Source: Bacillus phage vB_BspP_Dartukuta. Taken from it: 60,862 nt of DNA. The notes under the pieces were generated by a model. It was not told the origin of the DNA. It searched no databases and saw nothing but the letters and a program-made list of their open reading frames with translations. Numbering within the stretch: position 1 is the stretch's first letter; each line of letters opens with the position of its first letter. Shown here piece after piece: positions 40,535 through 60,625 of this stretch. The stretch is taken from the sequence record MW749009.1. One strand, 5' to 3'. The position numbers were made by a program, and so were the translations under genes.

Positions 40535-40558
40535 TAACACCCTGTAGGATTCGCAACC
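40535..40558 (+). promoter_or_regulatory. Conserved late motif, copy 3 (TAACACCCTGTAGGATTCGCAACC)
   Basis: Between the 631-aa and 662-aa genes, followed by an inverted repeat (40564..40603) that overlaps the Shine-Dalgarno of the next gene. Confidence 0.35.
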
Positions 40559-40607
40559 AAGTTCCGTAGCAGACAACATTAAGCGCAACAGCTAATGCTA
40601 CGGAGTC

Positions 40608-42596: not shown

Positions 42597-42616
42597 TTGC
42601 CGATAGGTATTAAATA

Positions 42617-45600: not shown

Positions 45601-48600
45601 AAACGCAGCGCGTAGAGGCACTAAACTTGCTGATTATGTTCAGCAGTCAGAAATGGGTATTGATCCAATGGTATACCCAATTCTGGAAATGATGCTGAAC
45701 GAGAATGGCAATATCCGTAGTAGCAAATACATCGGCGAACAGCTAACCAATATGGCAAAGTTGGCTTATGATGAAGCCAACTCACCTAGCTCAGATATGT
45801 TTGGCGAAAAACCCAAGCGTACAGCTGAGCAGGTTATTCAAGACGCGCTTACTGGAGTACAAGGTTATGGCCAAATCAATGACGGAAGAGGGCAAGAAAG
45901 TCTGGGGCAGCGAGGGCGGTCAGAACCTGATGCGCAAATGGTTGAAGGGCCAGAAGGCGGACGAGAGCGACCAGCAGACACTAGACAAACTGCACCAACT
46001 CAACCAGAAGCAGAGCAAGAACAACCCGCAGCAGTAGAAAGCAATGCGCCTGAAACATGGCGCAGTAACTACATTCAAGCCGCCAAGATTGCACGCGAAA
46101 AAGGCATTAATCCTAAGCAGCATAAAAAACTCGCTGACTTGGTTGAAGCTATTGATGCGTCAAACACTAAACCTGAAGCTCAAACACAGCTAACAGCACA
46201 ACAGAAGCAGGCTTCAGGCAGTGTAGATGGTGCAAAAGTCCATCTTAACAACAGCATTGACCTAACCAGCGCATTAGCTGCAATCGCACGCGGCGCACAA
46301 TTAAGCACCGAGCCAAACGGTGACGTTATTCTTAGTGGCACCAAGATAATTACGCTTCCAAAGCCGCCAACTTCTATTGATGAAGTTATTGCCCCGTTAG
46401 CCACAGCCTTACTAGAACAAATGCGAGCAGATGGCGTTTCTATGCCTGGCAACCCAGCGGACATGACGCGGGATCAGTTTGCTATTGCCTATCACTTTGC
46501 AAACATAATTCCAGAGTTTGAAATCAGCGGAGCAGATATTGGTGGCGTAGTCCAAGGATCAAGCCGTGGCTTAACAGTAGACTCAGACAAGCTATACGAC
46601 AAGATCATCGAGCAAGCCAAAGAGCAGGCTAAACCAGCCTTGGAGCTTAACCAGCAAACCGAAGAATCCTTAGCTAAAGATGCCAAACGATTAGAGCAGC
46701 TGCAGAAAGAAGAAGCTGCGCAGAAAGTCGCGCAGAAAGCTGCAGAAAGGAAACAGCGTGAGCGTGACGCAGACAAGGCCAGAGCGGACGAAGTGGTTGA
46801 TGACTTCCAGTTGGGGCAGTCTGCAGAAGAAGTAATGTCTGGCATGGGTGATATTTTTGCGACTGAGAGCAAGCCAGCAGATAAAGGCATTGCGTCTCAA
46901 GCCGATGACAGCCATGTCACAGTTGTTGATAACCAATACAACCCAAACCCTACAGAAGCGCAGAAGCAGGCTGGCAACTACAAGAAGGCTCACGTTAAAT
47001 TCCAAGGCCTTGATATCACAGTAGAGAATCCAGTCGGATCAGTGCGCAGTGGCGTAGATCCTGACGGCAATACTTGGTCAAATACTATAAAGCATGATTA
47101 CGGATACATTAAGCGCACTAAGGGCGCTGACGGCGACCATGTTGATGTGTTTATAGGTAAAGATACCGAAAGCGATAAGGTATTTGTAATTGATCAGCCG
47201 CACAAAAACGGTAAGTTCGACGAACACAAAATCATGCTCGGCTTTAAAGACCAGACGCAGGCCGTAGAAGCGTACAAAGGCAACTATCAGAAAGACTGGA
47301 AAGTTGGCTCTGTCACTGAAATGACTGTGGGCGAATTTAAGCAGTGGCTTAGCAATGGTGATACCACCAAACCGGTTGAGCCAGTCGCGAAGCCAGCAGC
47401 GCAAACAAAGCCAAGCCAAGCCATTGAGGACTTTGGTGAGAGGCTGGAAGGCGCACGCAAGGATTACGCCAGCAAACTATCTGACGCTAAAGAGGTAGAC
47501 ATTGCGACTGAGCCACTATCAAAGTCTTGGCCAGAGCCGAATTATCAGAAGTTGATTGACGGAGGAATGCCGCTAGAAACAGCAAGTATTGTTCGTGCTA
47601 TTCGTGATGAGATTCCAGTGAAGCCGCGCGCATCATGGCGACTGAAAGGATGGGTGCGACAAGTAAGCGAAATGCGTGATTTAGCCTTGAATTTGATGGG
47701 GGAAACAGCTACAGCTAAAGTGATTGTAGAGCAGATAAAATCTAATAAATCTTTATCAGACATAGTGAATCGTGCAGACCTGTACTCGGCAGTTGGGCAC
47801 GATAAAAGCCTAAAAGATATTAGTTTAAAACAAAGCTCTTACTCGTTGATTGATGGTGTTAAATACTCGCCACCGAAAGAGCTCTGGACGGTTGAAAGGC
47901 CGATTAAAAGCAGCGTAATAAGCAACATGCCCAGACGTATTGCGACAGCTGAAACAAGAGAGCAAGCGATTGCCAAATTCAAAAATGCGTATGCAACATT
48001 GGACGAAAGCAAACGTGTCAAGAACAAAGCAGTTGAGTTTGGGGTTTATACAGACAGAACCACAAAAGATGTTTTCATTGGCCGGAAGGTTGGCAAAAGT
48101 ATTGCTCGCGTAAAAACTGGATTCGAAACTGCTAAAGATGCAATTGCACACCTAAAGGAAAACTATGCTGCTCTTGAAGAGCGGTTTAACAAGATGAAGG
48201 ATACGCCCGATCATCGTAAGGCTGAAAACTCACCTAGAGTTGGCGTTGATCACCGAAATGGCGCGGATGTAACACCGGAGCAGTTCTCTGATACGTTCGG
48301 GTTCAGAGGGGTGCAGTTCGGTAACTATGTAGAGCAAGGACGTAGGCAGCAGGATCTAAATGAAGCCTATGATGCGCTTATGGACATGGCTGGCGTGTTA
48401 GGTATTCCAGCAAAATCTCTATCTTTAAATGGTGAGCTTGGACTAGCGTTTGGTGCTCGTGGTAAGGGTGGAAAACAAGCAGCTAAAGCGCATTATGAGC
48501 CAGATCAAATTGTTATTAACTTAACTAAGAAAAATGGCGCAGGCAGCCTTGCTCACGAATGGTGGCATGCGCTTGATAACTATTTTGGCCGCGAGCGTGG

Positions 48601-51600
48601 CGGTAAAAGCAATGAAATGTATGCCTCAGACAATCGAGCTCACGCGACAGTCAGACCTGAAATGGCAAAGGCTTATCGTGATATTGCAAGCGCAGTAAGC
48701 CGAACCAAGCTGAAGTTTCGTTCAGACAAGCTCGATAGAATGCGCACAAAACCATACTGGGGTACCGGTATAGAAATGACTGCGCGATCTTTCGAGAGCT
48801 ACGTTATTGAGAAGCTGCGTGATAGCGAGTTATCTAATGATTATTTAGCCAATATTGTTGGCGAAGATTACTGGAATGCTGCGGCAGCACTGGGCATTGA
48901 AAAGGATGGTACTTATCCGTATCCAGAGGCGGCTGAGATACCGGAAATCCGCGCTGCGTATGATAACTTTTTTAACACTCTAGAAACAAAGGAGGGTGAA
49001 GATGGCAATGTCCTGCTTTTTAGCTTTGCAGGCAAGACTGCTCGTGGCGCTGATCTTATGGCGCTGGATCAGGCTCAGTTGCGCATTGCTTCTGGTGACA
49101 ACGCCGAGACTGTACGCCAAGAAACAGGTTGGCACCGTGGCGATGATGGAAAGTGGCGCTTTGAGATCAGCGATGATCAAGCCAAGCTGCGCGTAGCTGG
49201 TAAAAATGCAGGTGAGCTTATTGACTCAGCCGCGCTTGACGCGATCACCGGTGGCCGCAAGTTCCCAGTGACTTCTGACCTGATCGACCACGCTCAACTA
49301 TTTGTTGCCTATCCTAAACTAAGCAATATCAAAGTAGAGAAAATGCCAGAAGGCGGTACCGCTCTAGCGCGATTAAAGCGCAGAGCTACAGGCTTCACTA
49401 TCCAGTTGCGCGATAACTTGCCACGCGAGAAAGTGGCGTCTGCAATCTTGCATGAGCTACAGCACGGCATTCAGGTTTACGAAGGCTTTGCCGTAGGCGG
49501 CTCTAAGAATATGGTCTTCAGTGATCTTGATATGAGTGGAGCCAAGGCGTATCGCGCACTTGCCGGTGAAGTGGAAGCGAGAAATACCCAAACACGCCAC
49601 TCTATGACGCCAGCTTTGCGCCGCAACATTGCGCCTGAGCTGACTCAGGACACGCCAAGTGCAGACGTGATCGTCACGTTCAACGGTAAGGACATTACCA
49701 ACAAGGCAATTCCTAATAACGTCAATAACGCGCCGATAACTGATGCCTCGCTGGTGCGAGCGTTCGATGTACAGTTCCCTCGGTTAACTAAAGCTGTGCG
49801 CACCATGCTTGCCCGTGGTAATAAGGGCGAGCGTGGTGGTGTGGTCGTGATTGATAGCGCTGATCCATTGATGATTGCCCGTGCGTTCGCCAAGAAAACA
49901 GGCAAGCCAATATCGCAGTCGGTGCAAATGTTCTCAGACGCTGGTGTGATCAATGGCTTCTTTGATCCTAAGTCTGGCCTTACCTTCCTTGTTGGTCCGA
50001 ACTTGAATCCAGTCACCGGCACAGCTGTTTTGCTTCACGAAATGATCCACGGTCAACAGCGCCAGAAGATCGACAAGGCCGCACTTGCCATGCTGATGAA
50101 TCGCGGCAAAGAGAAAAACGCAGAAACACGAGCGTTCCTTGATCGCGTAGCTGCTCGCATGGATGATGCTGGCGAAACAGCGAACGCACAAGAGGCAGGC
50201 GCTTACATTGTTGAGCAGGCCGTAATGGAAGGTAAGAGCGCTGGTTATGGCACTGCAGACAGCCGATTCCTTTCATGGGTAGACCAACATATTGGTAAGA
50301 CGGTAGGTGACTTCTTACGCTCGTTCATCGGTAATTTGCGCAGCTGGGCGCTGCGTAACGGCTTGCCTATTGGTCCGATTACTGTGGACGATCTTGTTAG
50401 CTACGCAATGGCAGGTATGAAGCAGGCTGGTCGCGGTAATGTTGATGGCGGTGCCGCTGGGTTCAGTCGTGACGCAACAGCTAGCCTAGAGGATGCTCTA
50501 GCGAAACTTGATGCGCTCGGCCTGAAGCATCGGATCAGCGAGCGCAACGATGTTATTACTGTGAGCAAGATTGAGGTGCCCGAGGGCGCTAGAGGTCAGG
50601 GCGCTGGATCATCGGCAATGCAAGCCCTGATCGACTACGCGGACGCCACTGGTAAGCACATTGCTTTAACACCAACAGCCGATTTTGGTGGTAACAAAGC
50701 AAGGCTTAAGGAGTTCTATCAGCGCTTTGGATTCAAGGAAAATAAGGGTAAAAACAAAGTTTACGAAGTCTCAGAAGGAATGGTTCGCGAAAATCCGAAT
50801 GGGCGCACCCTATATTCAAAGGGCATCACTGAAGATCTAGCAGAAGGCCAGCGGCAGTTTGCACAAACAGAAAATGCTTACGGTGGTCGTGCAGCCTACG
50901 ATCAGGCAAAATCAGAGGGCAAGACCAAGCTGAACTATCAGCAGTGGGTGCAGGTACGTACGCCTGCTTTTAAAAACTGGTTTGGGGATTGGGAAAATGA
51001 ATCAGAAAGAGTTGAGCGAAAAACAGAAAGAGTTCAGGAGGTGGCTGGACGAAACACTGCCAAACCCAACGCCAGAGCAACTCAGCCAGCTGGACGAGCG
51101 TGGCGACTGGATCCAGAAACCGGAGAGCCAAGAATCTTCTATCACGGAACCAAAGACAGCTTCACCGTCTTCGACCTAGATCACCAGAACAGAAAGGATC
51201 ACGGCTGGTTAGGTACAGGTATTTACACTGGAAGCGATAAACTTTTAGCAGAGTCATACGCAAGGCTGAAAGATGGCTCAGGTGAGCCGCGAGTTATGGA
51301 GTTTTTTGCAAATGTAAGGAACCCATATAAGGCTACTATAGAAGATAAGCAGCGGGGAAGATTTGCTGATAGAGCTTACGCCGACAGAGTTACAGAAAAG
51401 TTAAAAGAAGCTGGATACGACGGTGTAGTACTTCCGTTCGCAGATGGCAGTGTCGAGCTGGTGGCGTTTGATAAGCCGCAGATCAAATCAGCCACCGGCA
51501 ACGTCGGTACGTTTAGTGCAGACAATGATGATATACGATTTAGCTTTGCCGGCCAAAGGTCAGGAACAGCCGACCACTACTCATTAGGGTCAGCGCAGCA

Positions 51601-54600
51601 GCGCATTGAATCCGGCGAAAATGCAGAAGCGGTGCGTCAAGACACGGGCTGGCACAAAGGCATTGATGGCAAGTGGCGCTACGAAATTAGCGACCATGAC
51701 GCAAAACTACGCAAGCCATTTCCATCTAAGGGCCAGCTTTGGGGTGGAGTTTACGAAAGTGTCAACCAGTCCAAGGTGCAAAGAGGCGAGGGATACGGTA
51801 TCAGCCTAGGCGAAATACTGGATCACCCTGCACTATTTGCGGCATACCCGCATCTTGCAAGCCTATCTGTAAGCACGCAAAAGGGTAGCGGTGCGTCATA
51901 CGAGTCCGGCAGCCCTTCCAGTCCGGCATCTATCAGTATCGGCACCGATGTGCCAATGTATGACGTGCCAAGCAAGCTGCTGCACGAAATCCAGCACGGC
52001 ATTCAGAATATTGAAGGGTTTGCGCGTGGCGGCACTTTAGAAACGGGCGCTGGTTTGAGCAACCTTCATGCTCTACTTGAAAAGCAGAAGAATGAATTTG
52101 AAAACGAGCACGGGTTCAACGACTGGATTTTTGAACTAATACTGGAGCAGCCAAAACGACATAAAGCCTTGATGGACGAGGGCGCAAAAGATGGGTATTC
52201 ACTCCGTTCGCTATATCAGTCTTTTGCTAGTGAGAAGCTATCAGAAGAAGATCGCGGATATTTCGTATCGAGGATGCTGGGTTATGAAGATAAACTAAGA
52301 AAAGTCGCGCTTTCAAAGCACATAACTCCGAGCGAGTTCTATCAACGATTAGCAGGCGAAGTTGAAGCCCGCAACACCCAGATCCGCCATAAGATGACGG
52401 CTGAACAGCGCAAAAGCACACCGCCAAGCGCAACGCAAGATGTATCCGATGCCGATGCCATTGTCATGTTCAACGGAACGGAAATGCACAACGCGCCCGC
52501 ACCGGCAAACACCGGCACAAGCGACATTCGCTTCAGCCGCTCAGCTAACCCAGCTTCAATAAGCGCGGCACCAAACGGAATGGCAGCTTGGGATAGCCCT
52601 TCGGCATCGAAGTTCGATGACTTTGTTTACAAGATGCAAGATAAGCACGTTGATACAAAGCGCGTGATTGAAGCTATCCGCGACACAGGTAAGGCAATCA
52701 GCGATGACCTAGACGTATACCTGCAAGAAACATTGTTTCATGGGCGAGCAGCTAAGCGCACGCAAGACTTCTTAAACAAGGAAGTAAACCCGCTTATTGA
52801 GTACATGCAAAGCGCCAAGGTTGAAATGAGCGATCTTGAAGAGTTCTTGCACGCACGACACGCACAGGAAGCTAACGCGCTGATTGCTAAGCGCGATCCT
52901 AATATGCCTGATGGTGGGTCAGGTATGACAAACGCTGAGGCCGCAAAATACCTTAATTCGCTAAATGGCGTTCGACGTAAGCAATTAGAGAACGCTGCAA
53001 AGTTTGTCGATAAGATTATCGGTGGAACACGAGAAACCATTGTTAGCTATGGCCTTGAAAGCCAAGAAACGGTTGATGGCTGGACAGCCGGATTCAAGCA
53101 TTACATTCCGCTGCAGCGTGAAGATAAAGACGGCCAGATGGGTATTGGCCAAGGCTTCAGCGTTAAAGGAAAAGAGACTAAAGGACGCACAGGCTCAACA
53201 CGTAAGGTTGTTGATATTCTGGCCAACGTGATGATGCAGCGTGAGCGCGCCATTGTTCGTGGTGAGAAAAACCGAGTAGCAGTTGCATTGCTAGGACTCG
53301 CTAAAGATAACCCGCTACCTGAGTTCTGGCAGGTTGATAAAGTTCCGACAACACGGGTGCTTGATAAAGTAACAGGCTTGGTACGCAACCAAGCGGACCC
53401 TATGTACAAGAGTAGAGACAACGCTATTGTAGCTAAGGTAAACGGCCAAGAGCATGCGATCCTGATGAACGAAGACGACCCACGCGCAATGCGCATGGCC
53501 GAGGCTTTAAAGAATCTTGATGCGGCACATCTGGAAGGGTTGTTAGGTGCTACAGCCACTGCGACACGATACTTTGCAGCAGTGAATACGCAGTACAACC
53601 CGATATTTGGCGTAACAAACTTTGTTCGCGATATTCAAGAAGCCATGCTTCACTTACAAAGCACGCCACTAGCAGGGCAGCAGTCGCGCTTGTTCAAAAA
53701 TACATTCACCGCAGTTGGCGCGGTAATGAAAGCAGAGCGCGACGGCAGAAAAGGAAATAATGCAACAGGGAAGTGGGGCGTTTTATGGGAAGACTTTCAG
53801 AATACCGGTGGGCAGACTGGCTTCAGGGATCAGTTCAGCAATAGCGCAGATCGCGGCAAAGAGATCCAGCGAGCTTTAACACCGGATGGCTGGGCGGAAA
53901 CAGGCTTAGGCAAGTTCTTTACCGCCAATGGAGCACTTAAAGCACCGCTCGAAGTAGTGCGCAAAAAAGCGGCATGGCTGTTTGATCTGCTATCTGATTA
54001 CAACACGGCAATGGAAAACGGCGTGCGATTATCTGCTTATGAGACTGGGATTAACGCTGGCATGAGCAAAGAGCAGGCGGCAGCACTGGCCAAGGGATTG
54101 ACCGTTAACTTTAATCGAAAAGGCCAAGTTACCCAGCAAGTCGGCGCGCTCTATGCGTTCTTCAATGCGAGCGTGCAAGGTACTGCTCGATTAGGTCAGT
54201 CGCTGTTTGATATGGATGCTGGCAAGCCTAAAACGCTACGCCTATCGTCTCTAGGGAAGAAAATCGTATCAGGCGGCGTTATGCTGGGCGCGTCTCAGGC
54301 TGTACTGCTAGCGATGGCTGGCTTTGATGATGAAGAGCCGCCTGAGTTTATCCGTGAGCGCAACATCATCATACCGACGGGCGGAAAAACCTATATCAGC
54401 ATACCAATGCCGCTTGGCTATCACGTTATCGCAAACCTTGGCCGTATACCGATGGAGTTTGTTCTTGGTGGTGGAAAAGATGGCGCTAAGCACCTGTTTA
54501 ACCTAATGGACGTAATGGCAGACATTTACAATCCAATCGGTAACTCAGGCTTATCCATGCAAACAATCGCGCCTACTGTGCTCGATCCGCTTGCTGGCCT

Positions 54601-55228
54601 TGCAGAGAATAAAGACTTCTCAGGTCGTGCGATTGCAAAAGAAAGCTTTAACCGCCAGACGCCAGGTCATGCGCTCGCAAGAGATACGGCATCACTGCCG
54701 GCAACATGGCTGGCTGAATTAGTCAACTATGCAACAGGCGGAACTGAGTTTACCCGTGGCGAGTTATCACCAACACCTGATCAAATTGATTACCTTGTTG
54801 GTCAGCTAACCGGTGGTGTAGGCCGAGAAACCACTAAGTTTATGAAGTCGATTCAGGCGACTGCCACCGGTGATGATTTGCCTTGGCACAACATTCCGTT
54901 AGTCGGCAGGTTTTTTGGTGACGCAGACAGCGACGGAGCCAAGCAGTCAGCCTTTTACAACAGCATGGACAAGGTGCGTAAGCATGCTGAGGAAGTGAAA
55001 GGTTTGCGCGCCTCAGGAAGATCAGGCGAGGCAGTCGAGTACGCCAACAAGCACCCTCATGCCAAGCTTCATCTAGCAGCCAGAGCAGCAGAAAAGCAAG
55101 TGAAGGATATGCGCGATCGTAAGCGTGATCTTGAGCAGGCAGGCGCGCCACGGGAAGAAATACGCGCACTAGAGAAGCGGATGGTTGAGCGCATGGAGCA
55201 ATTTGTTGAGCTGGCCAAGGCGCAGTAA
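42617..55228 (+). CDS. Giant multidomain (polyvalent-type) protein, 4203 aa
   Basis: Single uninterrupted ORF. By eye: Gly-rich hydrophobic segment (aa ~145-215), pyrophosphatase-like DYGYIKRTKGADGDHVDVFIG (~aa 1505), HExxH sites at aa ~1980, 2279, 2474 and 3123, a duplicated ~200-aa module (GWHRGDDGKWRFEISD / GWHKGIDGKWRYEISD), GNAT-like RGQGAGS...FYQRFGF (~aa 2660), ART-like YHGT...GIYTG...VELVAF (~aa 2840-2950), hydrophobic C-terminal region. Confidence 0.7.
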   Translation: MSFEVDLDSAVLEGDYYGDDTRVKPESSSSGFSPEAGPAKQPAPFSVDLESAELDEKANQGFIGTLADGAKSAGRAISSTYNTYTGDGQAVVDNAKAQELANEDKSQDIKNFQSDWAANTGAGTDDEVGLWGAIKGTGKAIIDNPRGAALSVVEQFPNSVPALAAGWAGAKGGAMAGGAVGSAFGGVGAGPGALIGGAAGFVGGMFLGNTLTETGHKAQEYAADGEFTPDEQSAAITEGAKKAGVITAVDALTFAVGGKVSGYYRKTAESTVEAATRKTLLDAGVDISDTAALTAARGSPQIASQVVEAQKNAAKIADNLRKRAGEAGALLTMETVGEGLGEYLGELAATGQASVAEAVLESFLSLGQSGVQSMFNFAKARERSLTDQEWIDASNGIAPEGMAPEQMPVADGIWDKPTPEAKIDMGQMQGGGVTPTPVFDPQDIDRNLAPTPSQQMGINPDAGPLSAAAAQSVDSGLFTGGFTPQAGINQSALEREGVTPPPVLDTDQIDRNLGSIDPLTGEYMPAPEQLGQSSQAGGAGNYEYDQWGNLSSVDGRTVDGYGQNQPRLGFNSKAERSTAPLYEVGPDGVARPSSGEAARSRKERIDLSSLKGRQQTQAQKQPAAMPEQRSPEQQAQSIWDSMNTFERNAAAANVLGMRGVPAKNAATKAWDKLSSEQQAKLVTGLESQQGKRWIDPNQKVTDQTGPVLQNRDRTSQDSINQMRSISNNPDYSRLKTSGFLSDGAPVVVDENIQIPASQMGVTDTASAGNERFNVQYAVVEADQLMTSNSIDGTTNAEYQTGAAGKARAIAGNGRITGLQSAWAKGNASQYKADMAADRMHGIDPAVIEGMRNPVLVRLLPQDQVTDNIGDLSNRDEKGRLSPVEQAKTDMGRIDLDSLKFTAEGAIGGEAIHQFRMAQPAAERVSEAEARKRLTSAVFQKAYGNDQLTEIQSGESDDAKSILSALAQAAPSMSRLEGAGEFDIRPLITQAGIAAVNAARRGTKLADYVQQSEMGIDPMVYPILEMMLNENGNIRSSKYIGEQLTNMAKLAYDEANSPSSDMFGEKPKRTAEQVIQDALTGVQGYGQINDGRGQESLGQRGRSEPDAQMVEGPEGGRERPADTRQTAPTQPEAEQEQPAAVESNAPETWRSNYIQAAKIAREKGINPKQHKKLADLVEAIDASNTKPEAQTQLTAQQKQASGSVDGAKVHLNNSIDLTSALAAIARGAQLSTEPNGDVILSGTKIITLPKPPTSIDEVIAPLATALLEQMRADGVSMPGNPADMTRDQFAIAYHFANIIPEFEISGADIGGVVQGSSRGLTVDSDKLYDKIIEQAKEQAKPALELNQQTEESLAKDAKRLEQLQKEEAAQKVAQKAAERKQRERDADKARADEVVDDFQLGQSAEEVMSGMGDIFATESKPADKGIASQADDSHVTVVDNQYNPNPTEAQKQAGNYKKAHVKFQGLDITVENPVGSVRSGVDPDGNTWSNTIKHDYGYIKRTKGADGDHVDVFIGKDTESDKVFVIDQPHKNGKFDEHKIMLGFKDQTQAVEAYKGNYQKDWKVGSVTEMTVGEFKQWLSNGDTTKPVEPVAKPAAQTKPSQAIEDFGERLEGARKDYASKLSDAKEVDIATEPLSKSWPEPNYQKLIDGGMPLETASIVRAIRDEIPVKPRASWRLKGWVRQVSEMRDLALNLMGETATAKVIVEQIKSNKSLSDIVNRADLYSAVGHDKSLKDISLKQSSYSLIDGVKYSPPKELWTVERPIKSSVISNMPRRIATAETREQAIAKFKNAYATLDESKRVKNKAVEFGVYTDRTTKDVFIGRKVGKSIARVKTGFETAKDAIAHLKENYAALEERFNKMKDTPDHRKAENSPRVGVDHRNGADVTPEQFSDTFGFRGVQFGNYVEQGRRQQDLNEAYDALMDMAGVLGIPAKSLSLNGELGLAFGARGKGGKQAAKAHYEPDQIVINLTKKNGAGSLAHEWWHALDNYFGRERGGKSNEMYASDNRAHATVRPEMAKAYRDIASAVSRTKLKFRSDKLDRMRTKPYWGTGIEMTARSFESYVIEKLRDSELSNDYLANIVGEDYWNAAAALGIEKDGTYPYPEAAEIPEIRAAYDNFFNTLETKEGEDGNVLLFSFAGKTARGADLMALDQAQLRIASGDNAETVRQETGWHRGDDGKWRFEISDDQAKLRVAGKNAGELIDSAALDAITGGRKFPVTSDLIDHAQLFVAYPKLSNIKVEKMPEGGTALARLKRRATGFTIQLRDNLPREKVASAILHELQHGIQVYEGFAVGGSKNMVFSDLDMSGAKAYRALAGEVEARNTQTRHSMTPALRRNIAPELTQDTPSADVIVTFNGKDITNKAIPNNVNNAPITDASLVRAFDVQFPRLTKAVRTMLARGNKGERGGVVVIDSADPLMIARAFAKKTGKPISQSVQMFSDAGVINGFFDPKSGLTFLVGPNLNPVTGTAVLLHEMIHGQQRQKIDKAALAMLMNRGKEKNAETRAFLDRVAARMDDAGETANAQEAGAYIVEQAVMEGKSAGYGTADSRFLSWVDQHIGKTVGDFLRSFIGNLRSWALRNGLPIGPITVDDLVSYAMAGMKQAGRGNVDGGAAGFSRDATASLEDALAKLDALGLKHRISERNDVITVSKIEVPEGARGQGAGSSAMQALIDYADATGKHIALTPTADFGGNKARLKEFYQRFGFKENKGKNKVYEVSEGMVRENPNGRTLYSKGITEDLAEGQRQFAQTENAYGGRAAYDQAKSEGKTKLNYQQWVQVRTPAFKNWFGDWENESERVERKTERVQEVAGRNTAKPNARATQPAGRAWRLDPETGEPRIFYHGTKDSFTVFDLDHQNRKDHGWLGTGIYTGSDKLLAESYARLKDGSGEPRVMEFFANVRNPYKATIEDKQRGRFADRAYADRVTEKLKEAGYDGVVLPFADGSVELVAFDKPQIKSATGNVGTFSADNDDIRFSFAGQRSGTADHYSLGSAQQRIESGENAEAVRQDTGWHKGIDGKWRYEISDHDAKLRKPFPSKGQLWGGVYESVNQSKVQRGEGYGISLGEILDHPALFAAYPHLASLSVSTQKGSGASYESGSPSSPASISIGTDVPMYDVPSKLLHEIQHGIQNIEGFARGGTLETGAGLSNLHALLEKQKNEFENEHGFNDWIFELILEQPKRHKALMDEGAKDGYSLRSLYQSFASEKLSEEDRGYFVSRMLGYEDKLRKVALSKHITPSEFYQRLAGEVEARNTQIRHKMTAEQRKSTPPSATQDVSDADAIVMFNGTEMHNAPAPANTGTSDIRFSRSANPASISAAPNGMAAWDSPSASKFDDFVYKMQDKHVDTKRVIEAIRDTGKAISDDLDVYLQETLFHGRAAKRTQDFLNKEVNPLIEYMQSAKVEMSDLEEFLHARHAQEANALIAKRDPNMPDGGSGMTNAEAAKYLNSLNGVRRKQLENAAKFVDKIIGGTRETIVSYGLESQETVDGWTAGFKHYIPLQREDKDGQMGIGQGFSVKGKETKGRTGSTRKVVDILANVMMQRERAIVRGEKNRVAVALLGLAKDNPLPEFWQVDKVPTTRVLDKVTGLVRNQADPMYKSRDNAIVAKVNGQEHAILMNEDDPRAMRMAEALKNLDAAHLEGLLGATATATRYFAAVNTQYNPIFGVTNFVRDIQEAMLHLQSTPLAGQQSRLFKNTFTAVGAVMKAERDGRKGNNATGKWGVLWEDFQNTGGQTGFRDQFSNSADRGKEIQRALTPDGWAETGLGKFFTANGALKAPLEVVRKKAAWLFDLLSDYNTAMENGVRLSAYETGINAGMSKEQAAALAKGLTVNFNRKGQVTQQVGALYAFFNASVQGTARLGQSLFDMDAGKPKTLRLSSLGKKIVSGGVMLGASQAVLLAMAGFDDEEPPEFIRERNIIIPTGGKTYISIPMPLGYHVIANLGRIPMEFVLGGGKDGAKHLFNLMDVMADIYNPIGNSGLSMQTIAPTVLDPLAGLAENKDFSGRAIAKESFNRQTPGHALARDTASLPATWLAELVNYATGGTEFTRGELSPTPDQIDYLVGQLTGGVGRETTKFMKSIQATATGDDLPWHNIPLVGRFFGDADSDGAKQSAFYNSMDKVRKHAEEVKGLRASGRSGEAVEYANKHPHAKLHLAARAAEKQVKDMRDRKRDLEQAGAPREEIRALEKRMVERMEQFVELAKAQ

Positions 55229-55237
55229 CATTTTGAT

Positions 55238-55274
55238 CGCCTCGCCCTCAGCAATGAAGGCGAGGTTTAATGTT
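55238..55274. terminator. Stem-loop terminator between the convergent giant gene and antirepressor
   Basis: CCTCGCC (55240..55246), 12-nt loop, GGCGAGG (55259..55265), then TTTAATGTT. Confidence 0.45.
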
Positions 55275-55301
55275 AAGTTACGCCTGAAAATGCACAGCTG
55301 C

Positions 55302-56174
55302 TTACTGCCCTACACAGCTGTAATGATTAATCCGAAGCTTGCGCTGGTAGTCGTCTAAGGCTTGCGCGTAGGTTTTGACTAGCTGGTTTGCATGGCGGTT
55401 ACCATCCAGAATATGGTCAATCATTTCAATGCCAGCACGTGAGCCTAGGGCTTTCAGTGATTCATACATATTGTACTTGTTAAAAATATCGTACAGATGA
55501 TTCATGTGATTGCTCAGCAGGTAAACCTTATACAGGTCGTCTTCGGTCATGACGCCGTTAGGTTCCTCTTTGCCAAGAAACTCACCCTCAAGAGTTATGC
55601 GAGCCACTAAGCTGACTGCATCACTAAATTGGTCTGACTCAATCTCTTTGTATGAGCAACCAAACTTGGATTTGAGTGCTGACCAGCAAGTGATGGCTGC
55701 TTTGGCCTGTTTGCTTGGTGGCAGAGTTTCAACACGGGACTTTACTAAATCTTTGATGATGGATTGCTGCTCGATGGTGAGTGGAGTTCGGAGTGTTTTT
55801 TGAGCACGATGGTTAACAGCTTCGCCTTGCTGCCAGTAGTTGGCCAAGACCTGATAGCACTCACGCTTGTACTGAATCAGCGCAGGCCGGATCTCTTCGC
55901 GACAACGGCTCACATCAATGCCGAACAGCCAGCCGTTTAGGTATTCGAGTGGGAGACAGAGAAGTTCACGCTGTTTATTATCTTCGGCAACTGTATTCAT
56001 CATGAATACGGTTGAGCCTAAAACCTCGTCACGCATGATTCGGTTACGCTGTGAGCCCCACGCCAAACCGATGCCTTCGCAAACTGGACGCATAGCAACG
56101 AGCTGCTGATTATTATGGGTTATGACAGTAAGAGTGTGGTTGTGAAACTGGACTGAAGCAACTTGAGTTTTCAT
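55302..56174 (-). CDS. Phage antirepressor (Ant-like N-terminal domain)
   Basis: ORF track 55302..56183 begins on GTG; ATG at 56174. N-terminus VQFHNHTLTVITHNNQQLVAMRPVCEGIGLAWGSQ resembles the P22 Ant N-terminal domain (from memory). Confidence 0.6.
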   Translation of the reverse strand: MKTQVASVQFHNHTLTVITHNNQQLVAMRPVCEGIGLAWGSQRNRIMRDEVLGSTVFMMNTVAEDNKQRELLCLPLEYLNGWLFGIDVSRCREEIRPALIQYKRECYQVLANYWQQGEAVNHRAQKTLRTPLTIEQQSIIKDLVKSRVETLPPSKQAKAAITCWSALKSKFGCSYKEIESDQFSDAVSLVARITLEGEFLGKEEPNGVMTEDDLYKVYLLSNHMNHLYDIFNKYNMYESLKALGSRAGIEMIDHILDGNRHANQLVKTYAQALDDYQRKLRINHYSCVGQ

Positions 56175-56194
56175 AGTGAGCACCTTTCAGATTT

Positions 56195-56420
56195 GAGAGG
56201 TTCACCACCGAAGCGACCAAGCAAGGGTGGCGAACTGTACGCAGGTTGGTCGACCGGGCGAAAGGACCCCGGCACACCCGAAGGTGTCCCACGCACAGCC
56301 CGCCATAACGCGGGCACAAAAAAACCGCTGATGCGGCGTTGTGCGCCTTTCAAGTTCCGGGCGACCAAACCCGTATCGCTGAATTTGCAGCGACGCGGGA
56401 AAGGTAGCCTGAAAATAGCA
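56195..56420. ncRNA. GC-rich structured non-coding region; candidate regulatory RNA upstream of ant
   Basis: Several short GC stems with 4-nt loops (CCGGG..CCCGG, ACACC-CGAA-GGTGT, GCCCGC-cataac-GCGGGC); only short overlapping ORFs in several frames on both strands; GC visibly higher than the flanks. Strand and family undetermined. Confidence 0.3.
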
Positions 56421-56523
56421 AAGCGTCAAATAGAAAGTGATTTTATGTATTAAGTGGCTTACTTGACTAGAAGTGATGGCGTGCTAACTTAACTAATTCT
56501 TATGTTCAAAGGATGGAATCATC

Positions 56524-56886
56524 GTGGTAAACACTAAAGCGCTTGTATGCGCAGCAATTATGTCTACAGGGTTATTATTACCAGCCACTGGTAGTGCCTA
56601 TACAGGTAATGATTTAGATATGTGGTTATCTTCACATGCTAGGGTAGTTAGTGGTACAGGAAATGCTAAGGACTTAGAAAACTTAGATTTTCTTACGGGG
56701 TATGTGGCTGGCACGTATGACGCACTTGATGTGACAGGGAATCTGTGCGCGCCAAATAATGTGACTTTATCTCAGATGATAGCGGCGGTGAGTAAAGAGC
56801 ATAAGAACAGCCCTGAAAAGTGGACTGAAAATGCTCGCGGTATTGTGATTGTCGGCTTGGTCAGATCTTTCCCCTGTGGTAAATGA
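56524..56886 (+). CDS. Secreted hypothetical protein (120 aa) with N-terminal signal peptide
   Basis: GTG start with AAGGA upstream; hydrophobic N-terminus ALVCAAIMSTGLLLPATGSA, then Cys-containing mature region. Confidence 0.5.
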   Translation: MVNTKALVCAAIMSTGLLLPATGSAYTGNDLDMWLSSHARVVSGTGNAKDLENLDFLTGYVAGTYDALDVTGNLCAPNNVTLSQMIAAVSKEHKNSPEKWTENARGIVIVGLVRSFPCGK

Positions 56887-56998
56887 TGCTTACTGAAGCG
56901 GTTTACTCACTGGCATGGCTCTGTGAGAAATGCTCTGAAAACCTTAGAGTTCAGACTTGAGTTGAGCTCTAAGGCTAAAGCGAACAGCATTTGTTTGC

Positions 56999-57820
56999 TT
57001 ATTGAATTGAAGAAACGCACTGGCCTTTGATGTAAACGAATAGTGATCGACCGTCATTTAAGCTGTACACCCATTGCTCTGTGCCGACTATCAGCGAGTT
57101 AACTGATGATGGGGAGCCAATAGCGCTTCGCACCTCGCTACTGGTCATACCTTGCCATATTTCTTTTTGGCCTATTCTCACTATTCCTCGTTTGGGCTTT
57201 CGAGCAGTGCAAGCTTCGCGGCTACCATCTTGTGGGCGCGGGTCATTCATCTTGTTCTCGATTTGCTTGAGTCGTCTGTCGAGAGGGCTCTGGTTAGGAT
57301 TGTAATGCACTTCGCGATCATTTATTTCAGGAAGAGCATAATCAGGCTGGGAAGAAGTTGTCGCCCTTGGTGATGAAGTTAGGCCAACTTCTCTGGCTTC
57401 ACGGCGCAGGCGAACAGCGCGAGCTGCTTGGCTTTCGCGGCTTGAATCGTGAACTACCGTCACACCGCTAGGGTTTTCCTTACGTTTCCTGGCTATAGCT
57501 TCTTCCTTTTCCCGCAAGCGGCGGTTGATTAGGCCGCCAAGGGTAGAAGGGTCTTCTGCACGAGGATCTGGCACGACAGTGACCTTCATTGTTGAGCTAG
57601 AAGGATTGCTGCGAGCATATTCAATTTCTCTGACCTGCTCTGGAGTCGCGAATGTTCCTATCTGATTGGTTTGAGTGTTAACTATCTCGGACACACCTTC
57701 AGGTGTTGTACAAGGCACGTTTGCGAAGCTCACTTTTCCGTCAGGGCTTATGCACTTATAGACTTGACTATAGGCGAGTACTGGGGTCATAAAAACAGCA
57801 AGCATGACGTAATTCCACAT
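56999..57820 (-). CDS. Secreted protein with DUF4124-like N-terminal domain (~274 aa)
   Basis: ORF track 56999..57868; ATG at 57820 with AGGAG upstream; signal peptide MWNYVMLAVFMTPVLAYS then QVYKCISPDGKVSFANVPC; Ser/Arg-rich middle. Confidence 0.5.
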   Translation of the reverse strand: MWNYVMLAVFMTPVLAYSQVYKCISPDGKVSFANVPCTTPEGVSEIVNTQTNQIGTFATPEQVREIEYARSNPSSSTMKVTVVPDPRAEDPSTLGGLINRRLREKEEAIARKRKENPSGVTVVHDSSRESQAARAVRLRREAREVGLTSSPRATTSSQPDYALPEINDREVHYNPNQSPLDRRLKQIENKMNDPRPQDGSREACTARKPKRGIVRIGQKEIWQGMTSSEVRSAIGSPSSVNSLIVGTEQWVYSLNDGRSLFVYIKGQCVSSIQ

Positions 57821-57908
57821 AGCATTTCTCCTGAAAATTCCTTGTGTTGTTTTATAAGCTGCAAGCAAAAAACCTAATATATCAAAGCATCCGGCAGATT
57901 ACCTTAGT

Positions 57909-57931
57909 GCCACCCTGTAGAGTTTCACACG
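57909..57931 (+). promoter_or_regulatory. Conserved late motif, copy 4 (GCCACCCTGTAGAGTTTCACACG)
   Basis: ~50 bp upstream of the holin ATG; followed by a 9-bp inverted repeat (57936..57944 / 57970..57978) that includes the GGAAG ribosome-binding site. Confidence 0.4.
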
Positions 57932-57981
57932 CCATGTAACTTCCTAAAGAATACCCAAAAACGGTATTTGGAAGTTACGTT

Positions 57982-58293
57982 ATGTCTGACGATGTTAAGA
58001 ACGCTATAGGCCAGTTTGCAGCGTGGTTTGCTGGTGCTATCGGAGTCATCAGCCTTGAAATGTGGCTGGCAATCGCAGGTCTTGTCATCTCAGGCTTTAT
58101 GGCTTGGACCAATTACAGGTCGCGAGAGATTCAAGATCGCTTATTGCTCGAAGAAGCGATGCGCAGCGTAGAGTTGCATGACCTTGAAATGCGGCGTATC
58201 AGGGCAGCGATAGATATTCCGCCAGCGGTAAATCGACCAGTTGTAAAAGAGCTTGTAAAAGAATCTGCAACAGCGAAGTGCCGTGATGAGTAA
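57982..58293 (+). CDS. Putative holin / pinholin (103 aa, two TM segments)
   Basis: Two hydrophobic helices (FAAWFAGAIGVISL, WLAIAGLVISGFMAW) and a charged C-terminus; immediately upstream of the SAR endolysin. Confidence 0.5.
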   Translation: MSDDVKNAIGQFAAWFAGAIGVISLEMWLAIAGLVISGFMAWTNYRSREIQDRLLLEEAMRSVELHDLEMRRIRAAIDIPPAVNRPVVKELVKESATAKCRDE

Positions 58294-58828
58294 GCGCGCC
58301 AGAGCATCGGTTATGGCGCTGGTGATTAGCGCCGCAGGTTTTTCTGCTTGGATGACCTCGGAAGGCTTCAGTCCTACGCCATACATTCCCACCAAAAACG
58401 ATGTGCCAACAATCGGTCACGGTTCAACTCGGTACGAAGATGGCTCACCAGTAAAGCTCACAGATAAACCGATCACCAAGCAGCGGGCAGAGCAGCTAGC
58501 TCGAAACCTTATGAGCACTGATGAAGCACGCTTTCGCGCAACAATACCCAACGTCACGCTTTACCAAGAAGAGTACGACTTATACCTAGACTTTGTTGGC
58601 CAGTACGGTATTGGCAACTGGCGCTCATCATCCATGCGCCGGCATCTACTGACAGGCGAATACGCGAATGCTTGCGGGGCATTGCTGCGGTATCGCTTTG
58701 CTGGTGGCTACGACTGCTCAACTATGATCAACGGCAAGCCTAACAACAGATGCTGGGGTGTCTGGGTAAGGCAGCTAGAGCGCCATGACAAATGTATGAA
58801 GGCGCAAGCGTACGGTGATGACGAATGA
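58283..58828 (+). CDS. SAR endolysin (T4-type lysozyme, GH24)
   Basis: N-terminal signal-anchor-release segment MALVISAAGFSAWMTS, then catalytic region SEGFSPTPYIPTKNDVPTIGHGST and RYRFAGG, matching the phage P21 R-type lysozyme pattern. Confidence 0.85.
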   Translation: MMSKRARASVMALVISAAGFSAWMTSEGFSPTPYIPTKNDVPTIGHGSTRYEDGSPVKLTDKPITKQRAEQLARNLMSTDEARFRATIPNVTLYQEEYDLYLDFVGQYGIGNWRSSSMRRHLLTGEYANACGALLRYRFAGGYDCSTMINGKPNNRCWGVWVRQLERHDKCMKAQAYGDDE

Positions 58829-58921
58829 TACAGAAAGCATTGAAGTTGTTTTTTAACGGACTCAGCGCAGAGGCTCGCATCATCCAGCTTAACGCTGCAG
58901 TGAAACAGAGGACGGGATTAA

Positions 58922-59431
58922 GTGAATACAGAACTACGGCAAACACTATTCATGCTGATAGCACTAGCGGTAACAGGACTGGCAGTGTTTGGTATGGGAT
59001 ACGCGCTCGGCAGCAAGGCACCAGCGTTAAAACTCGAAGAGTTAAGAGGCCAAGTAAGTCGGCAGTCAGCGCAGGCAAAAGAAACTCTTGATCAGCTGAC
59101 CAAAGAGCGAGACGAAAAGCAGGCGCTGCTTGATGCCCAGGCAAAACAACAGGAGGAAAACGACAATGCTGCGAAACTTGAAATTGCTCGCCTTGCTGAC
59201 GAGCTTGCAAGTCGGCCTATTCGGGTGCGCGTCATCGCCGCAAGTGGGGCATGTAGTGGTAGCGCCGCTGGTGACACCAGCACCGGTACCGAAACTGGTA
59301 CAGGAAACGATGCCGCGACCAGTGGGCTATTACCAGAACCTAATTCTCGACGCCTTAGAGCAGCAATAGCAGAGGTTGAAACGCTGAGTGCTGCGTACAG
59401 TTCGTGCAGAAAACGATTGTTTAGCCATTGA
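58922..59431 (+). CDS. i-spanin (Rz-like)
   Basis: N-terminal TM helix LFMLIALAVTGLAVFGMGYALG, then coiled-coil periplasmic domain; contains the o-spanin ORF in another frame. Confidence 0.7.
   Translation: MNTELRQTLFMLIALAVTGLAVFGMGYALGSKAPALKLEELRGQVSRQSAQAKETLDQLTKERDEKQALLDAQAKQQEENDNAAKLEIARLADELASRPIRVRVIAASGACSGSAAGDTSTGTETGTGNDAATSGLLPEPNSRRLRAAIAEVETLSAAYSSCRKRLFSH
59166..59369 (+). CDS. o-spanin (Rz1-like lipoprotein), embedded in the i-spanin gene
   Basis: ORF track 59130..59369; ATG at 59166 gives MLRNLKLLALLTSLQVGLFGCASS with an LFGC lipobox and a Pro-rich mature region. Confidence 0.6.
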   Translation: MLRNLKLLALLTSLQVGLFGCASSPQVGHVVVAPLVTPAPVPKLVQETMPRPVGYYQNLILDALEQQ

Positions 59432-59432: not shown

Positions 59433-60625
59433 ATCCTCCCCGACCTAAAGGACGGGGATTCCTACTGCTAGACGGCCATGCCCGACCGCGAGAATGTTAC
59501 GTGCCGCGTTTACATCGCGATCGTGAGTGACACCGCACTCACACGTCCATTCTCTTATTCCAAGCCCTGCGATACCTTTCGGCCTGCTATCGGGCAGTGC
59601 GCCACAACAGCTACAGGTTTGGGTGGTGTATGCCTCGTTCACTTCCTTAAAAACAATGCCTGCGTGAGCGCATTTATAGTCCAACATTGTTTTTAATTGG
59701 CCCCAGCCAGCATCTAACACTGACTTGGCCATCTTGGTTTTAACGAGTTTTAAACTACTGACATTGCCCACATAGATCTCACCGCAGCGGTTGACCAGCG
59801 TGCGACTGAACTTGTGCAGCGTATCTTTTCTACGGTTAGCAATCTTGGCGTGAATGGTTTTGACTTGAGTTTTATTTCTAGCCCGTTGCGCTATGGCTAA
59901 TTTCTCTTCAAGGCCACGGTAGAAACGACCGGCTTCCAGCTTTGTGCCATCTGAGCAGGTGGCCGTATCCGTTAAGCCTAGATCAATACCGATGCGGTCT
60001 TGTCCGACTGGGATCTCTGACTGCACATCCACCACCACATTAAAGTACCAGCGGCCACGCGCATCCTCATTGAAACTGGCAGTACGAAAACGGTGTTGGC
60101 CAAGGCCGTAGCTGTCCCACACTCCAAAGTATTGGCCGTTGAAATAGACTTGCCCGCTTTTCCACTGTGCTGCACCGGTGTTTACCGGAATCCAGCCTAA
60201 TGAGCGGCGTACGCCGCCTGACTTGCGCCAGTTCAGCCTGGTCTTGTTAAACTGTTTGCGGCGAGTCACGTACTCACCAGCAATGCACTGCAAGGTTTGG
60301 CTGTGCAAGCCCAGTTCCTTGCCTGCACCTTTCGTATAGGGATGCATATCGTAAGCTGATAGAAACACACTGCGCTCTTTGATCGAGCGCTGGCTTAATT
60401 CATTCACAAAGTTCCAGACGAAGTTCACGGCCATGGCTTGCTTGCGCAGCAATGAAATGTGCTTATCCTTGATACGAACTTTGAGTGTTTTGGTGTGCTT
60501 AATCATGCTGTATACAATACCAGTACTTACCCTTAGCGCCAATACTTTAGCAGTCTATTAAGGGGCGGCTTGCGCCGCCCTCGCTATCCATCCTCGCACT
60601 AAAAGTACGAGGTCTTTCGCGAAAC
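59433..60625 (-). mobile_element. IS200/IS605-family TnpB-only insertion element (ends approximate)
   Basis: tnpB flanked by similar subterminal hairpins: CATCC-TCCCCG-loop-CGGGGA at 59433..59458 and CCATC-CTCG-loop-CGAGG at 60588..60612, plus GGGCGGC-ttgc-GCCGCCC at 60563..60580. No tnpA ORF in the window. Confidence 0.6.
59445..60506 (-). CDS. tnpB: TnpB (RuvC-like RNA-guided endonuclease of IS200/IS605-type elements)
   Basis: RuvC-I IGIDLGLTDTATCSDG, zinc finger CSCCG...CECG, RuvC-III THDRDVNAARNI. ORF track 59445..60542 begins on TTG; first ATG at 60506 (MIKHTKTL). Confidence 0.9.
   Translation of the reverse strand: MIKHTKTLKVRIKDKHISLLRKQAMAVNFVWNFVNELSQRSIKERSVFLSAYDMHPYTKGAGKELGLHSQTLQCIAGEYVTRRKQFNKTRLNWRKSGGVRRSLGWIPVNTGAAQWKSGQVYFNGQYFGVWDSYGLGQHRFRTASFNEDARGRWYFNVVVDVQSEIPVGQDRIGIDLGLTDTATCSDGTKLEAGRFYRGLEEKLAIAQRARNKTQVKTIHAKIANRRKDTLHKFSRTLVNRCGEIYVGNVSSLKLVKTKMAKSVLDAGWGQLKTMLDYKCAHAGIVFKEVNEAYTTQTCSCCGALPDSRPKGIAGLGIREWTCECGVTHDRDVNAARNILAVGHGRLAVGIPVL

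Follow-up and report, generated by a model that had tools for sequence, protein, structure and literature searches.

A predicted c4 antisense RNA-antirepressor switch and two putative cargo genes in the slot that separates the giant gene from the lysis genes in a temperate phage

A block of genes running against its surroundings

Between the gene for a giant protein and the lysis genes of Bacillus phage vB_BspP_Dartukuta (sequence record MW749009.1) lies a block (55302..57868) in which minus-strand genes appear within a late region that is otherwise transcribed from the plus strand, raising the question of what these genes do and whether they belong together. An original prediction, made from the sequence alone, had read the block as one moron island. 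We analyzed the whole 60,862-nucleotide (nt) stretch of DNA, hereafter referred to as the window, and used related phages and contigs (numbered with the prefix L) for comparison. With a probability of roughly 0.6, we read the block as one regulatory module, built from a c4-type antisense RNA and an antirepressor gene, plus two independent cargo genes for secreted proteins, all situated in a slot prone to recombination that is flanked, in this temperate phage, by the giant gene and the lysis cassette. Every feature that the original prediction had named was found at or near the position given for it, and homology searches together with structure prediction placed one of the two secreted proteins in the Rap1a/Tai4 family, while yielding only weak fold matches for the other.

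An antisense RNA with two target copies precedes the antirepressor gene

The antirepressor expected on the minus strand is well supported, as the open reading frame (ORF) 55302..56183 matches PF10547 (P22_AR_N, E 5e-38) as well as phrog_524 ("anti-repressor Ant", E 1e-54). Its start is likely the ATG at 56174, behind AAAGGUG, which would give an Ant protein of 290 amino acids (aa; 55302..56174, minus strand) with P22_AR_N at residues 10-122 and a C-terminal domain (residues ~125-290) that is common to relatives. The structured RNA that had been noted as a candidate upstream of this gene corresponds to three Rfam families on the minus strand, each above its gathering score. The c4 antisense RNA (C4, RF01695) occupies 56223..56310 over its full length (1-87) with 72.7 bits (E 2e-13; gathering score 45), and its predicted fold has a minimum free energy (MFE) of -51.9 kcal/mol and a z-score of -3.55. 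Upstream of it, c4-a1b1 (RF03163, 56407..56354, 52.6 bits) and isrK (RF01394, 56394..56318, 54.9 bits compared to a gathering score of 50) overlap in an a1/b1 motif followed by a terminator, i.e., an IsrK-like short-RNA unit (56318..56407, minus strand, z-score -4.3). A plus-strand ORF overlapping the c4 region (56163..56453, 96 aa) was rejected as a gene, since the RNA families explain the region. In the phage PAShipCat1, a coding sequence (CDS) annotated as "hypothetical protein" (WVW38027.1; L023 4030..4263) is drawn over the corresponding c4/a1b1 RNA region.

Following the minus strand in its direction of transcription (56429 to 55302), the unit begins with a candidate c4-ant promoter (56401..56429) that matches the consensus, with a -35 hexamer TTGACG (56429..56424), a 17-nt spacer, and a -10 hexamer TACCTT (56406..56401); the -35 hexamer and the spacing are kept in L001, L004, PAJU2, PAShipCat1, and L026. 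This is followed by site a1 (UUGGUCG, 56368..56362), which lies in a hairpin loop, site b1 (GAAAGG, 56351..56346), and an intrinsic terminator recovered by a terminator scan (56337..56318; GCCGCAUCAGCGG and then U7). Within the c4 RNA, b' (CCUUUC, 56265..56260) forms the loop of hairpin 2, and a' (CGACCAA, 56252..56246) is single-stranded just 3' of that hairpin. Both are complementary to the ant leader (56183..56220, minus strand), which carries a2 (UUGGUCG, 56220..56214) and b2 (GAAAGG, 56188..56183), the latter being the ant Shine-Dalgarno sequence 8 nt before the ATG. The duplexes of a' and b' with a2 and b2 were calculated at -9.9 and -9.0 kcal/mol, respectively, and lie at homologous positions in all relatives.

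The order of a1b1/isrK, c4, and ant recurs in L001, L003, L004, L012, L026, PAJU2, and PAShipCat1, and the short sites differ between these phages in a concerted manner. The window and L004 share UUGGUCG as a sites and GAAAGG as b sites; L012 has the same a sites together with GUAC(A/G)GG; L001 has UUGACAG and GAUUAGG, PAJU2 and PAShipCat1 have UUGG(C/U)CG and GGUAAGG, and L026 has (U/C)AGCAG and UAGUUGG. Thereby, a' and b' co-vary with their target copies on either side of c4, being complementary within each phage, with five b variants and four a variants in what is a small sample of five independent sequences (the window, L001, L012, PAJU2, and L026). Furthermore, b2 is located on the ant Shine-Dalgarno sequence in every phage compared, ending 5-11 nt ahead of the ant AUG, and the stem of c4 hairpin 1 shows fully compensatory changes among the relatives. 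Matrices of cross-phage duplex energies between c4 and its targets were too noisy to reveal specificity, as the short, G-rich targets pair alternatively; the argument for specificity therefore rests on the position-specific complementary sites. This three-way, position-specific pattern makes comparison between phages the strongest indication that the c4 sites are functional.

Taken together, these features make it very probable that the c4-ant module is a switch of the type known from P1/P7 immI and from IsrK of Gifsy-1. In such a switch, transcripts from the promoter would first carry a1/b1 and end at the terminator, giving a short IsrK-like RNA, and read-through would produce the c4 RNA followed by ant. 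Pairing of c4 b' and a' with b2 and a2 would keep ant untranslated in the lysogen, while the upstream a1/b1 copy would compete for c4. Ant, once made, would inactivate the CI-like S24 repressor; this presumed target is encoded in the window (11639..12277). Complementarity and covariation are seen directly in the compared sequences, and we infer the processing of the RNAs, the timing of their expression, and the target of Ant from P1/P7 and Gifsy-1. In Gifsy-1, two products arise from the isrK promoter: IsrK, a short RNA, and a read-through mRNA that encodes the antirepressor AnrP, is translationally silent, and is activated by IsrK in trans; IsrK itself, terminator read-through, and translational control of AnrP have been demonstrated experimentally (PMC4825925).

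The likeness to P1/P7 immI comprises the C4 and c4-a1b1 matches, the order of promoter, a1/b1, c4, a2/b2, and antirepressor gene, the location of b2, which covers the ribosome-binding site of the gene that follows, and short a'/b' sequences that set the specificity and vary among related phages. In contrast to P1/P7, where icd lies in between, the window is devoid of icd, so that b2 would mask the ribosome-binding site of ant directly. Moreover, unlike in P1/P7, an intrinsic terminator separates a1/b1 from c4 and Ant is a P22_AR_N protein, and while P1 is a plasmid prophage, the phage of the window integrates, has a CI/S24 repressor, and carries the module between its virion genes and its lysis genes. 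With the Gifsy-1 IsrK-orf45-AnrP system, the window shares the isrK match, the short terminated RNA, the downstream antirepressor gene, and, by prediction, read-through into that gene and a long mRNA that is translationally silent. It differs from that system in lacking an orf45-like coupling ORF and in the full c4 RNA between the terminator and ant, and upstream in the window, we identified no gene for an antQ-type antiterminator.

Exchange boundaries run through the block

If the antirepressor and the RNA form such a switch, they are not cargo but would control whether the phage itself enters lysis or lysogeny. The idea of a moron island thus applies in part: the slot does gather accessory genes, with cargo differing among relatives, whereas ant and its RNA are regulatory rather than morons. 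We weighed the stronger version of this idea, according to which the whole of 55302..57868 was acquired as one island of cooperating genes, against the relatives. In its favor, L004 is collinear with the window (93% identity), and c4, the gene for the Rap1a-like protein, the gene for the second secreted protein (containing a DUF4124 match), and the lysis genes keep the same arrangement in L001 and L003-L006, with 93-96% identity; the block is, furthermore, counter-oriented or bracketed by hairpins. However, in L001 and L003, the N-terminal half of ant (window 55785..56168) is replaced between flanks of 94-98% identity, their Ant proteins carrying Bro-N in place of P22_AR_N, while residues ~125-290 of Ant are almost identical to those in L001. 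The c4 specificity of L001 also differs from that of the window. Likewise, the two secreted-protein genes occur apart, with L008-L011 carrying the DUF4124 gene but no Rap1a-like or ant gene, and a Rap1a-like gene being found without the DUF4124 gene in L026 and in the Cronobacter phage ENT47670. These exchange boundaries inside the block argue for several exchange units, at least three of them exchanging independently, instead of one island, and since ant and c4 constitute a regulatory circuit of the phage and not cargo, we regard acquisition as a single island as very improbable.

The interval between the giant gene and ant is variable as well, containing an HTH_31 gene and a gene for a 165-aa protein in L001 and five other genes, including a DprA-like one, in L003. 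The same slot, with the same orientation, exists in the D3-like Pseudomonas phages PAJU2 and PAShipCat1, in which a tail protein gene (plus strand), an O-antigen acetylase gene (minus), ant (minus), c4 with a1b1 (minus), and a hypothetical gene plus the endolysin gene (plus) follow each other. There, the c4/a1b1/isrK DNA is 81-87% identical to that of the window, the C-terminal domain of Ant is 36% identical, and accessory genes are attached, but the b specificity differs, the acetylase gene lies downstream of ant, the unrelated ORF026 lies on the other side, and neither a Rap1a-like nor a DUF4124 gene is present. A counter-oriented c4-ant cassette with a conversion gene between tail and lysis genes is thus an already existing architecture, of which the window is a new example with other cargo. 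The genes adjoining the c4 promoter of L012 (113 aa) and of PAJU2 (ORF026) were tested as divergent Rap1a genes and rejected as unrelated.

The stem-loops that had been taken as borders of the island are present, and both lie between convergent genes, where terminators are expected; their use as island boundaries is, therefore, not upheld. The first one, predicted at 55238..55274, separates the giant gene (stop 55228) from ant (stop 55302) and consists of CCTCGCC (55240-55246) paired with GGCGAGG (55259-55265) plus 3 inner base pairs (bp). This hairpin (55240..55265) has a z-score of -3.5 on both strands, none of 200 shuffled sequences (0/200) folding as well, and is probably a bidirectional terminator. 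The inverted repeat that had been noted near 56940..56970 is formed by CCTTAGAG (56942-56949) and CTCTAAGG (56967-56974). It belongs to the first, 13-bp hairpin of two (56942-56974 and 56978-57000) between the convergent Rap1a-like and DUF4124 genes; the region 56942..57000 reaches an MFE of -38.9 kcal/mol and a z-score of -3.3. These hairpins, 3' of both cargo genes, are devoid of U-runs, so that a terminator function is suggested by their location, and promoter matches for the cargo genes are as frequent in shuffled sequence.

The description of the block as the sole late segment that is not co-oriented with its neighbors is accurate for 12803..59431, where the long ORFs are otherwise all on the plus strand and the remaining minus-strand ORFs are shadows within them. 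It does not extend to the region just beyond the lysis genes, where a TnpB gene (59445..60542) is again on the minus strand.

A Rap1a/Tai4-family protein encoded next to the candidate c4 promoter

The small secreted protein that had been predicted on the plus strand (56524..56886, 120 aa), divergent from the c4 promoter region, is real: it matches PF18602 (Rap1a) with 49.7 bits compared to a cut-off of 27.7 (E 5.6e-13). By inspection, its N-terminus, MVNTKALVCAAIMSTGLLLPATGSA|YTG, resembles a Sec signal peptide, with Lys5, a hydrophobic stretch, and G-S-A|Y at the presumed cleavage site; the family consensus has AxA ahead of the mature part, and the N-terminal helix has a low predicted local distance difference test (pLDDT) score in the structural model. 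The protein is thus predicted to be exported to the periplasm. Although a word-indexed homolog search returned one match, an exhaustive HMMER search yielded 540 family clusters (E<=1e-3), nearly all of them 110-130 aa in length with N-terminal signal-like segments. In an alignment of 130 homologs, G28, L31, C75, Q84, P97, W100, L112, and the F116-P117-C118 motif are near-invariant, the protein thus featuring the pair Cys75...Phe-Pro-Cys118. Searching PDB sequences directly with each of the two secreted proteins gave no match, but a profile built from the 130 homologs identified Tai4 (6IJE/6IJF, E 6e-11) and Rap1a (3ZFI/4BI8, E 5e-8), with no other match below E 0.3. The AlphaFold2 model (pLDDT 90.3), which shows four helices after the signal peptide, led to the same proteins in a Foldseek search against PDB, with target-normalized TM-scores of 0.78 for Tai4 and 0.68 for Rap1a (probability 1.00 each), the next matches having a probability of at most 0.25. 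The agreement of Pfam, the profile match to solved structures, and AlphaFold2/Foldseek is a secure basis for family membership, which we therefore assign with high confidence. A separate protein, P0037 (569 aa), contains six Rap1a-like stretches; it has the look of a tandem array or fusion and might confer immunity of multiple specificities.

Rap1a and Tai4 neutralize Tae4-type peptidoglycan amidases that are delivered through type VI secretion systems (T6SS). The likeness of the window protein to Rap1a of Serratia marcescens and Tai4 of Agrobacterium tumefaciens extends to the Pfam family, the all-helical fold, the size, periplasmic targeting, and the C...FPC cysteines. In contrast to these proteins, it is prophage-borne and lies away from any Tae4 effector/T6SS cluster, pairwise identity is ~20%, and binding and protection are predictions. 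Indeed, neither a Tae4 effector gene nor T6SS genes were found beside the gene, its neighbors being c4/ant and the DUF4124 gene, and scanning the giant protein and seven large virion proteins, large stretches of which are without domain match, detected no NlpC/P60, CHAP, or Tae4-like domains even at E<=0.5. Since no amidase gene is nearby and none was detected in the scanned virion proteins, we consider the 120-aa protein an orphan. An orphan immunity protein could bind Tae4-type amidases injected by the T6SS of competitors and thereby protect the lysogen, both the target and the benefit being suggested by the family. The chance that the protein works in this way, as T6SS amidase immunity, falls in our estimate a little short of even.

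With a GC content of 43.8% (37.2% at third codon positions) compared to 50.1% for the window, the gene for the 120-aa protein falls in the 3rd percentile of same-size windows. In L026, a distant giant-protein phage, a homolog with 39% identity ends 8 nt before the conserved -35 hexamer of c4, on the same strand, whereas the homolog in ENT47670 (L007 5001..5273), which is unannotated, is counter-oriented between head genes. The low GC content and these three placements, divergent from c4, on its strand, or among head genes, fit a mobile accessory gene. Antirepressor, HTH, or giant-protein genes, and not Tae4 effector genes, are the neighbors of the nearest homologs, the gene is located next to the lysis cassette, and PHROGs contains a phage family, phrog_3870, that holds Rap1a-like proteins, its function there being unassigned. 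All of this would suit a protein directed against phages or the phage itself, i.e., an inhibitor of a peptidoglycan hydrolase of incoming virions or of the phage's own lytic enzymes, for which Sp of T4, which blocks the gp5 lysozyme, is a precedent in superinfection exclusion. However, the failure to detect amidase-type domains in the giant and virion proteins leaves self-immunity unsupported, the endolysin is a PF00959 lysozyme and thus of another enzyme class than the amidases inhibited by Rap1a/Tai4, and all members of the family with known function are T6SS immunity proteins. We therefore consider such a phage- or self-directed inhibitor unlikely.

The occurrence of the Rap1a family in phages is not new, as UniProt and BFVD automatically name such phage proteins "Rap1a immunity protein domain-containing protein". 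A scan of IMG/VR with the window protein gave no relatives. We found no paper on phage-borne Rap1a/Tai4 orphan immunity in a literature search that was incomplete and thus is no proof of novelty. Prophages with whole T6SS effector-immunity clusters have been described in phiRSY1-like phages of Ralstonia (PMC11481896) and in the Burkholderia phage AB4 (PMC13366799). The Rap1a-like gene resembles such clusters, and morons in general, in being a small accessory gene of deviant GC content among late genes that plausibly helps the lysogen to compete; it differs from them in being an immunity-type gene without an effector, so that its role would be one of defense only.

A second secreted protein with independent mobility

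The other secreted protein (56999..57820, minus strand, 273 aa) had been called DUF4124-like, which is confirmed by a match to PF13511 (25.0 bits compared to a cut-off of 22), although this match is short (~50 residues) and takes in the last part of the signal peptide. A match to BamE (E 4e-4, 20.7 bits) remained below the cut-off of 23.2. Homologs of 269-277 aa support the start at 57820, as had been predicted, and not the TTG at 57868. The protein consists of a signal-peptide-like N-terminus, the DUF4124 motif, two VTVV repeats split by charged helices, and a C-terminal alpha/beta domain, and it contains two conserved Cys pairs. In the AlphaFold2 model, the C-terminal domain is predicted with a pLDDT of ~90 and the remainder with low scores, and the weak fold matches (BLIP, E 2.8; accessory domains of SCP proteins, E 0.04; YpmB) point only to BamE/BLIP-like protein-binding domains. 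The family is small and rare, comprising 17 clusters; relatives were detected neither in GTDB representative genomes or IMG/VR (alignment scans) nor in GenBank phages (tblastn). Neither NCBIfam nor PADLOC provided a match for this protein, for the Rap1a-like protein, or for Ant.

With 49.0%, the GC content of the DUF4124 gene is close to that of the window. Homologs with 50-60% identity are counter-oriented among virion genes in L008 and L010; in L009, the homolog adjoins a type I restriction-modification system along with a Fic gene, and in L012/L013, it lies at the prophage end, beside a YhaV toxin(-antitoxin) module and a tRNA gene. Occurring in four different contexts, the gene is thus independently mobile cargo. 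This relative probably has its attachment site at the tRNA match in L012 (12012..12073, plus strand), which adjoins thrS-infC-rpmI-rplT and lies directly beyond the DUF4124/YhaV cargo.

The original prediction had proposed that the two periplasmic proteins could act at the envelope. For the 120-aa protein, this can be narrowed to a T6SS-amidase immunity family, whereas the 273-aa protein is left without a specific role; our confidence in any particular function for it is low, and a part in superinfection exclusion or receptor modification is weakly suggested. One such function would be a disturbance of type IV pilus assembly in the periplasm, which would exclude pilus-dependent phages. Type IV pili are the receptor of phage F116, and Pseudomonas prophages often block pili for exclusion. 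The virion region of the window is weakly similar in DNA to F116 and H66, both Pseudomonas phages. Among DUF4124 proteins, a role is known only for the periplasmic TfpC of Neisseria gonorrhoeae, which is required for type IV pilus stability (PMC7593972). However, beyond the short DUF4124 match, the 273-aa protein is unlike TfpC, having a BamE-like domain where TfpC has a coiled coil, and DUF4124 genes upstream of vgrG in two T6SS auxiliary clusters of Ralstonia (PMC11481896) point elsewhere. A function in pilus-dependent exclusion is, in our view, quite improbable.

Both secreted proteins might instead be ordinary accessory components of lysis or of the virion, such as regulators that work together with holin, endolysin, and spanins in lysis. 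Their genes do adjoin the cassette of holin, SAR-type (signal-arrest-release) lysozyme, and Rz/Rz1, and both proteins would be periplasmic like lysis proteins. Yet one of the two genes is transcribed opposite to the lysis genes, homologs of each are found away from lysis genes, neither protein matches a lysis or structural PHROG, and D3-like phages with the same c4-ant/lysis layout lack both of them. This explanation is, consequently, highly improbable.

Balance of the evidence

Several observations weigh against the reading of the block as a c4-ant switch with two independent cargo genes. The -10 hexamer of the candidate c4 promoter is weak compared to the consensus, and no icd ORF lies between c4 and ant, only 48 nt extending from the 3' end of c4 (56223) to the ATG at 56174. 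The promoters of both cargo genes are likewise weak consensus matches. The nearest homologs of the Rap1a-like protein (38-40% identity) are on phage-like contigs, which could equally mean a phage-specific function, and neither the host nor its community yielded a Tae4-type effector, leaving the target putative. Finally, the DUF4124 protein has no informative homolog and a model of low confidence outside the C-terminal domain. A more far-reaching proposal is, in our view, less likely than not: a phage-specific Rap1a/Tai4 branch, placed divergently from the c4 promoter here and directly upstream of it on its strand in L026, might be habitually wired to c4/antirepressor control. Transcription for lysogenic immunity would then also supply the host with an orphan shield against T6SS amidases, the prophage thereby earning its keep when lysogens fight by contact, and the DUF4124/BamE-like protein would serve as a second envelope shield.

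Genomic surroundings of the block

The window is a prophage with a tyrosine integrase gene at its left end (3..1205). Among its early genes, which are encoded on the minus strand, is a recombination pair of YqaJ and RecT type. The C-terminus of the YqaJ-like exonuclease (5914..7518, minus strand, 534 aa) matches the RecBCD-inhibitor family of T7 gp5.9 (PF25708, residues 492-529, E 5e-17), which would fuse recombination and anti-RecBCD functions, and a RecT-like gene is located next to it (7523..8317). A further minus-strand ORF (1599..2360, 253 aa) has a dUTPase domain in residues 125-252 only, with no match in the N-terminal 120 residues, and may contain an extra domain or a mis-called start. 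The repressor encoded at 11639..12277 combines a helix-turn-helix (HTH) with an S24 domain, and the plus-strand late block runs unbroken from 12803 up to the giant gene.

The giant gene (42617..55228, plus strand) encodes a polyvalent protein of 4203 aa with InPase, ddrB-ParB, LPD1, LPD5, two LPD23, LPD38, ART-PolyVal, and GNAT domains. It also contains several HExxH motifs, and residues 1-700, 860-1440, and 3000-3900 are without domain match. The giant proteins of relatives, 3932-4660 aa in length, have partly different domain sets (RadC, MuF_C).

On the other side of the block, the plus-strand lysis genes encode a holin (57982..58293), a lysozyme-family endolysin (PF00959, 58283..58828), which is SAR-type with a hydrophobic N-terminal segment, and the Rz spanin (58922..59431). 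An ORF embedded in the Rz gene in another frame (59130..59369, plus strand) encodes a hydrophobic segment followed by a lipobox-like LFGC (…LLALLTSLQVGLFGCASSPQ…) and is probably the Rz1 o-spanin. The divergent intergenic region between the DUF4124 gene and the holin gene harbors an inverted repeat with perfect 9-bp arms, GTAACTTCC...GGAAGTTAC, and a loop of 25 nt (57936..57978), which ends 3 nt short of the holin start codon and may be an operator or a structure affecting holin translation. Directly after the spanin gene, the TnpB gene of IS605 type (59445..60542) encodes OrfB_IS605 and a Cas12f1-like TNB domain; as homology to L001 ends at ~59412-59422, this element was inserted at or near the prophage end. 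The end of the Rz gene and prophage (59295..59422) is, moreover, 82% identical to L001 7225..7352 (~130 bp), a segment just past the giant gene and ahead of extra cargo genes in L001; this similarity might be a scar left by recombination or a junction sequence that is repeated.

L001 is the nearest relative with host flanks, and a resistance-nodulation-division (RND) efflux gene beyond it shows 79% identity to Denitrificimonas caeni and 59% to a Thiopseudomonas metagenome-assembled genome. Based on this flanking gene, the host would be placed in the Pseudomonadaceae, in agreement with weak DNA similarity of the window to F116/H66 in the virion region and to D3-like phages, and it is probably a low-GC member of that family, Denitrificimonas/Thiopseudomonas-like.

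Implications for phage immunity and lysogen fitness

The block is a new example of known things, containing nothing outside known categories, and it does not overturn current understanding. Its analysis improves annotation in several places, as a c4 region has been mis-drawn as a CDS, the Rap1a-like ORF of ENT47670 is missing, and phrog_3870 can be assigned to a family. Furthermore, relatives that have swapped antisense specificities and Ant N-terminal domains between flanks of 94-97% identity provide material for studying how heteroimmunity evolves. If it is true that the Rap1a-like protein shields from Tae4-type toxins, the window would represent a clean case of T6SS immunity carried by a prophage for defense only, as a form of lysogenic conversion, and carriage of the phage would be linked to the outcome of interbacterial competition.

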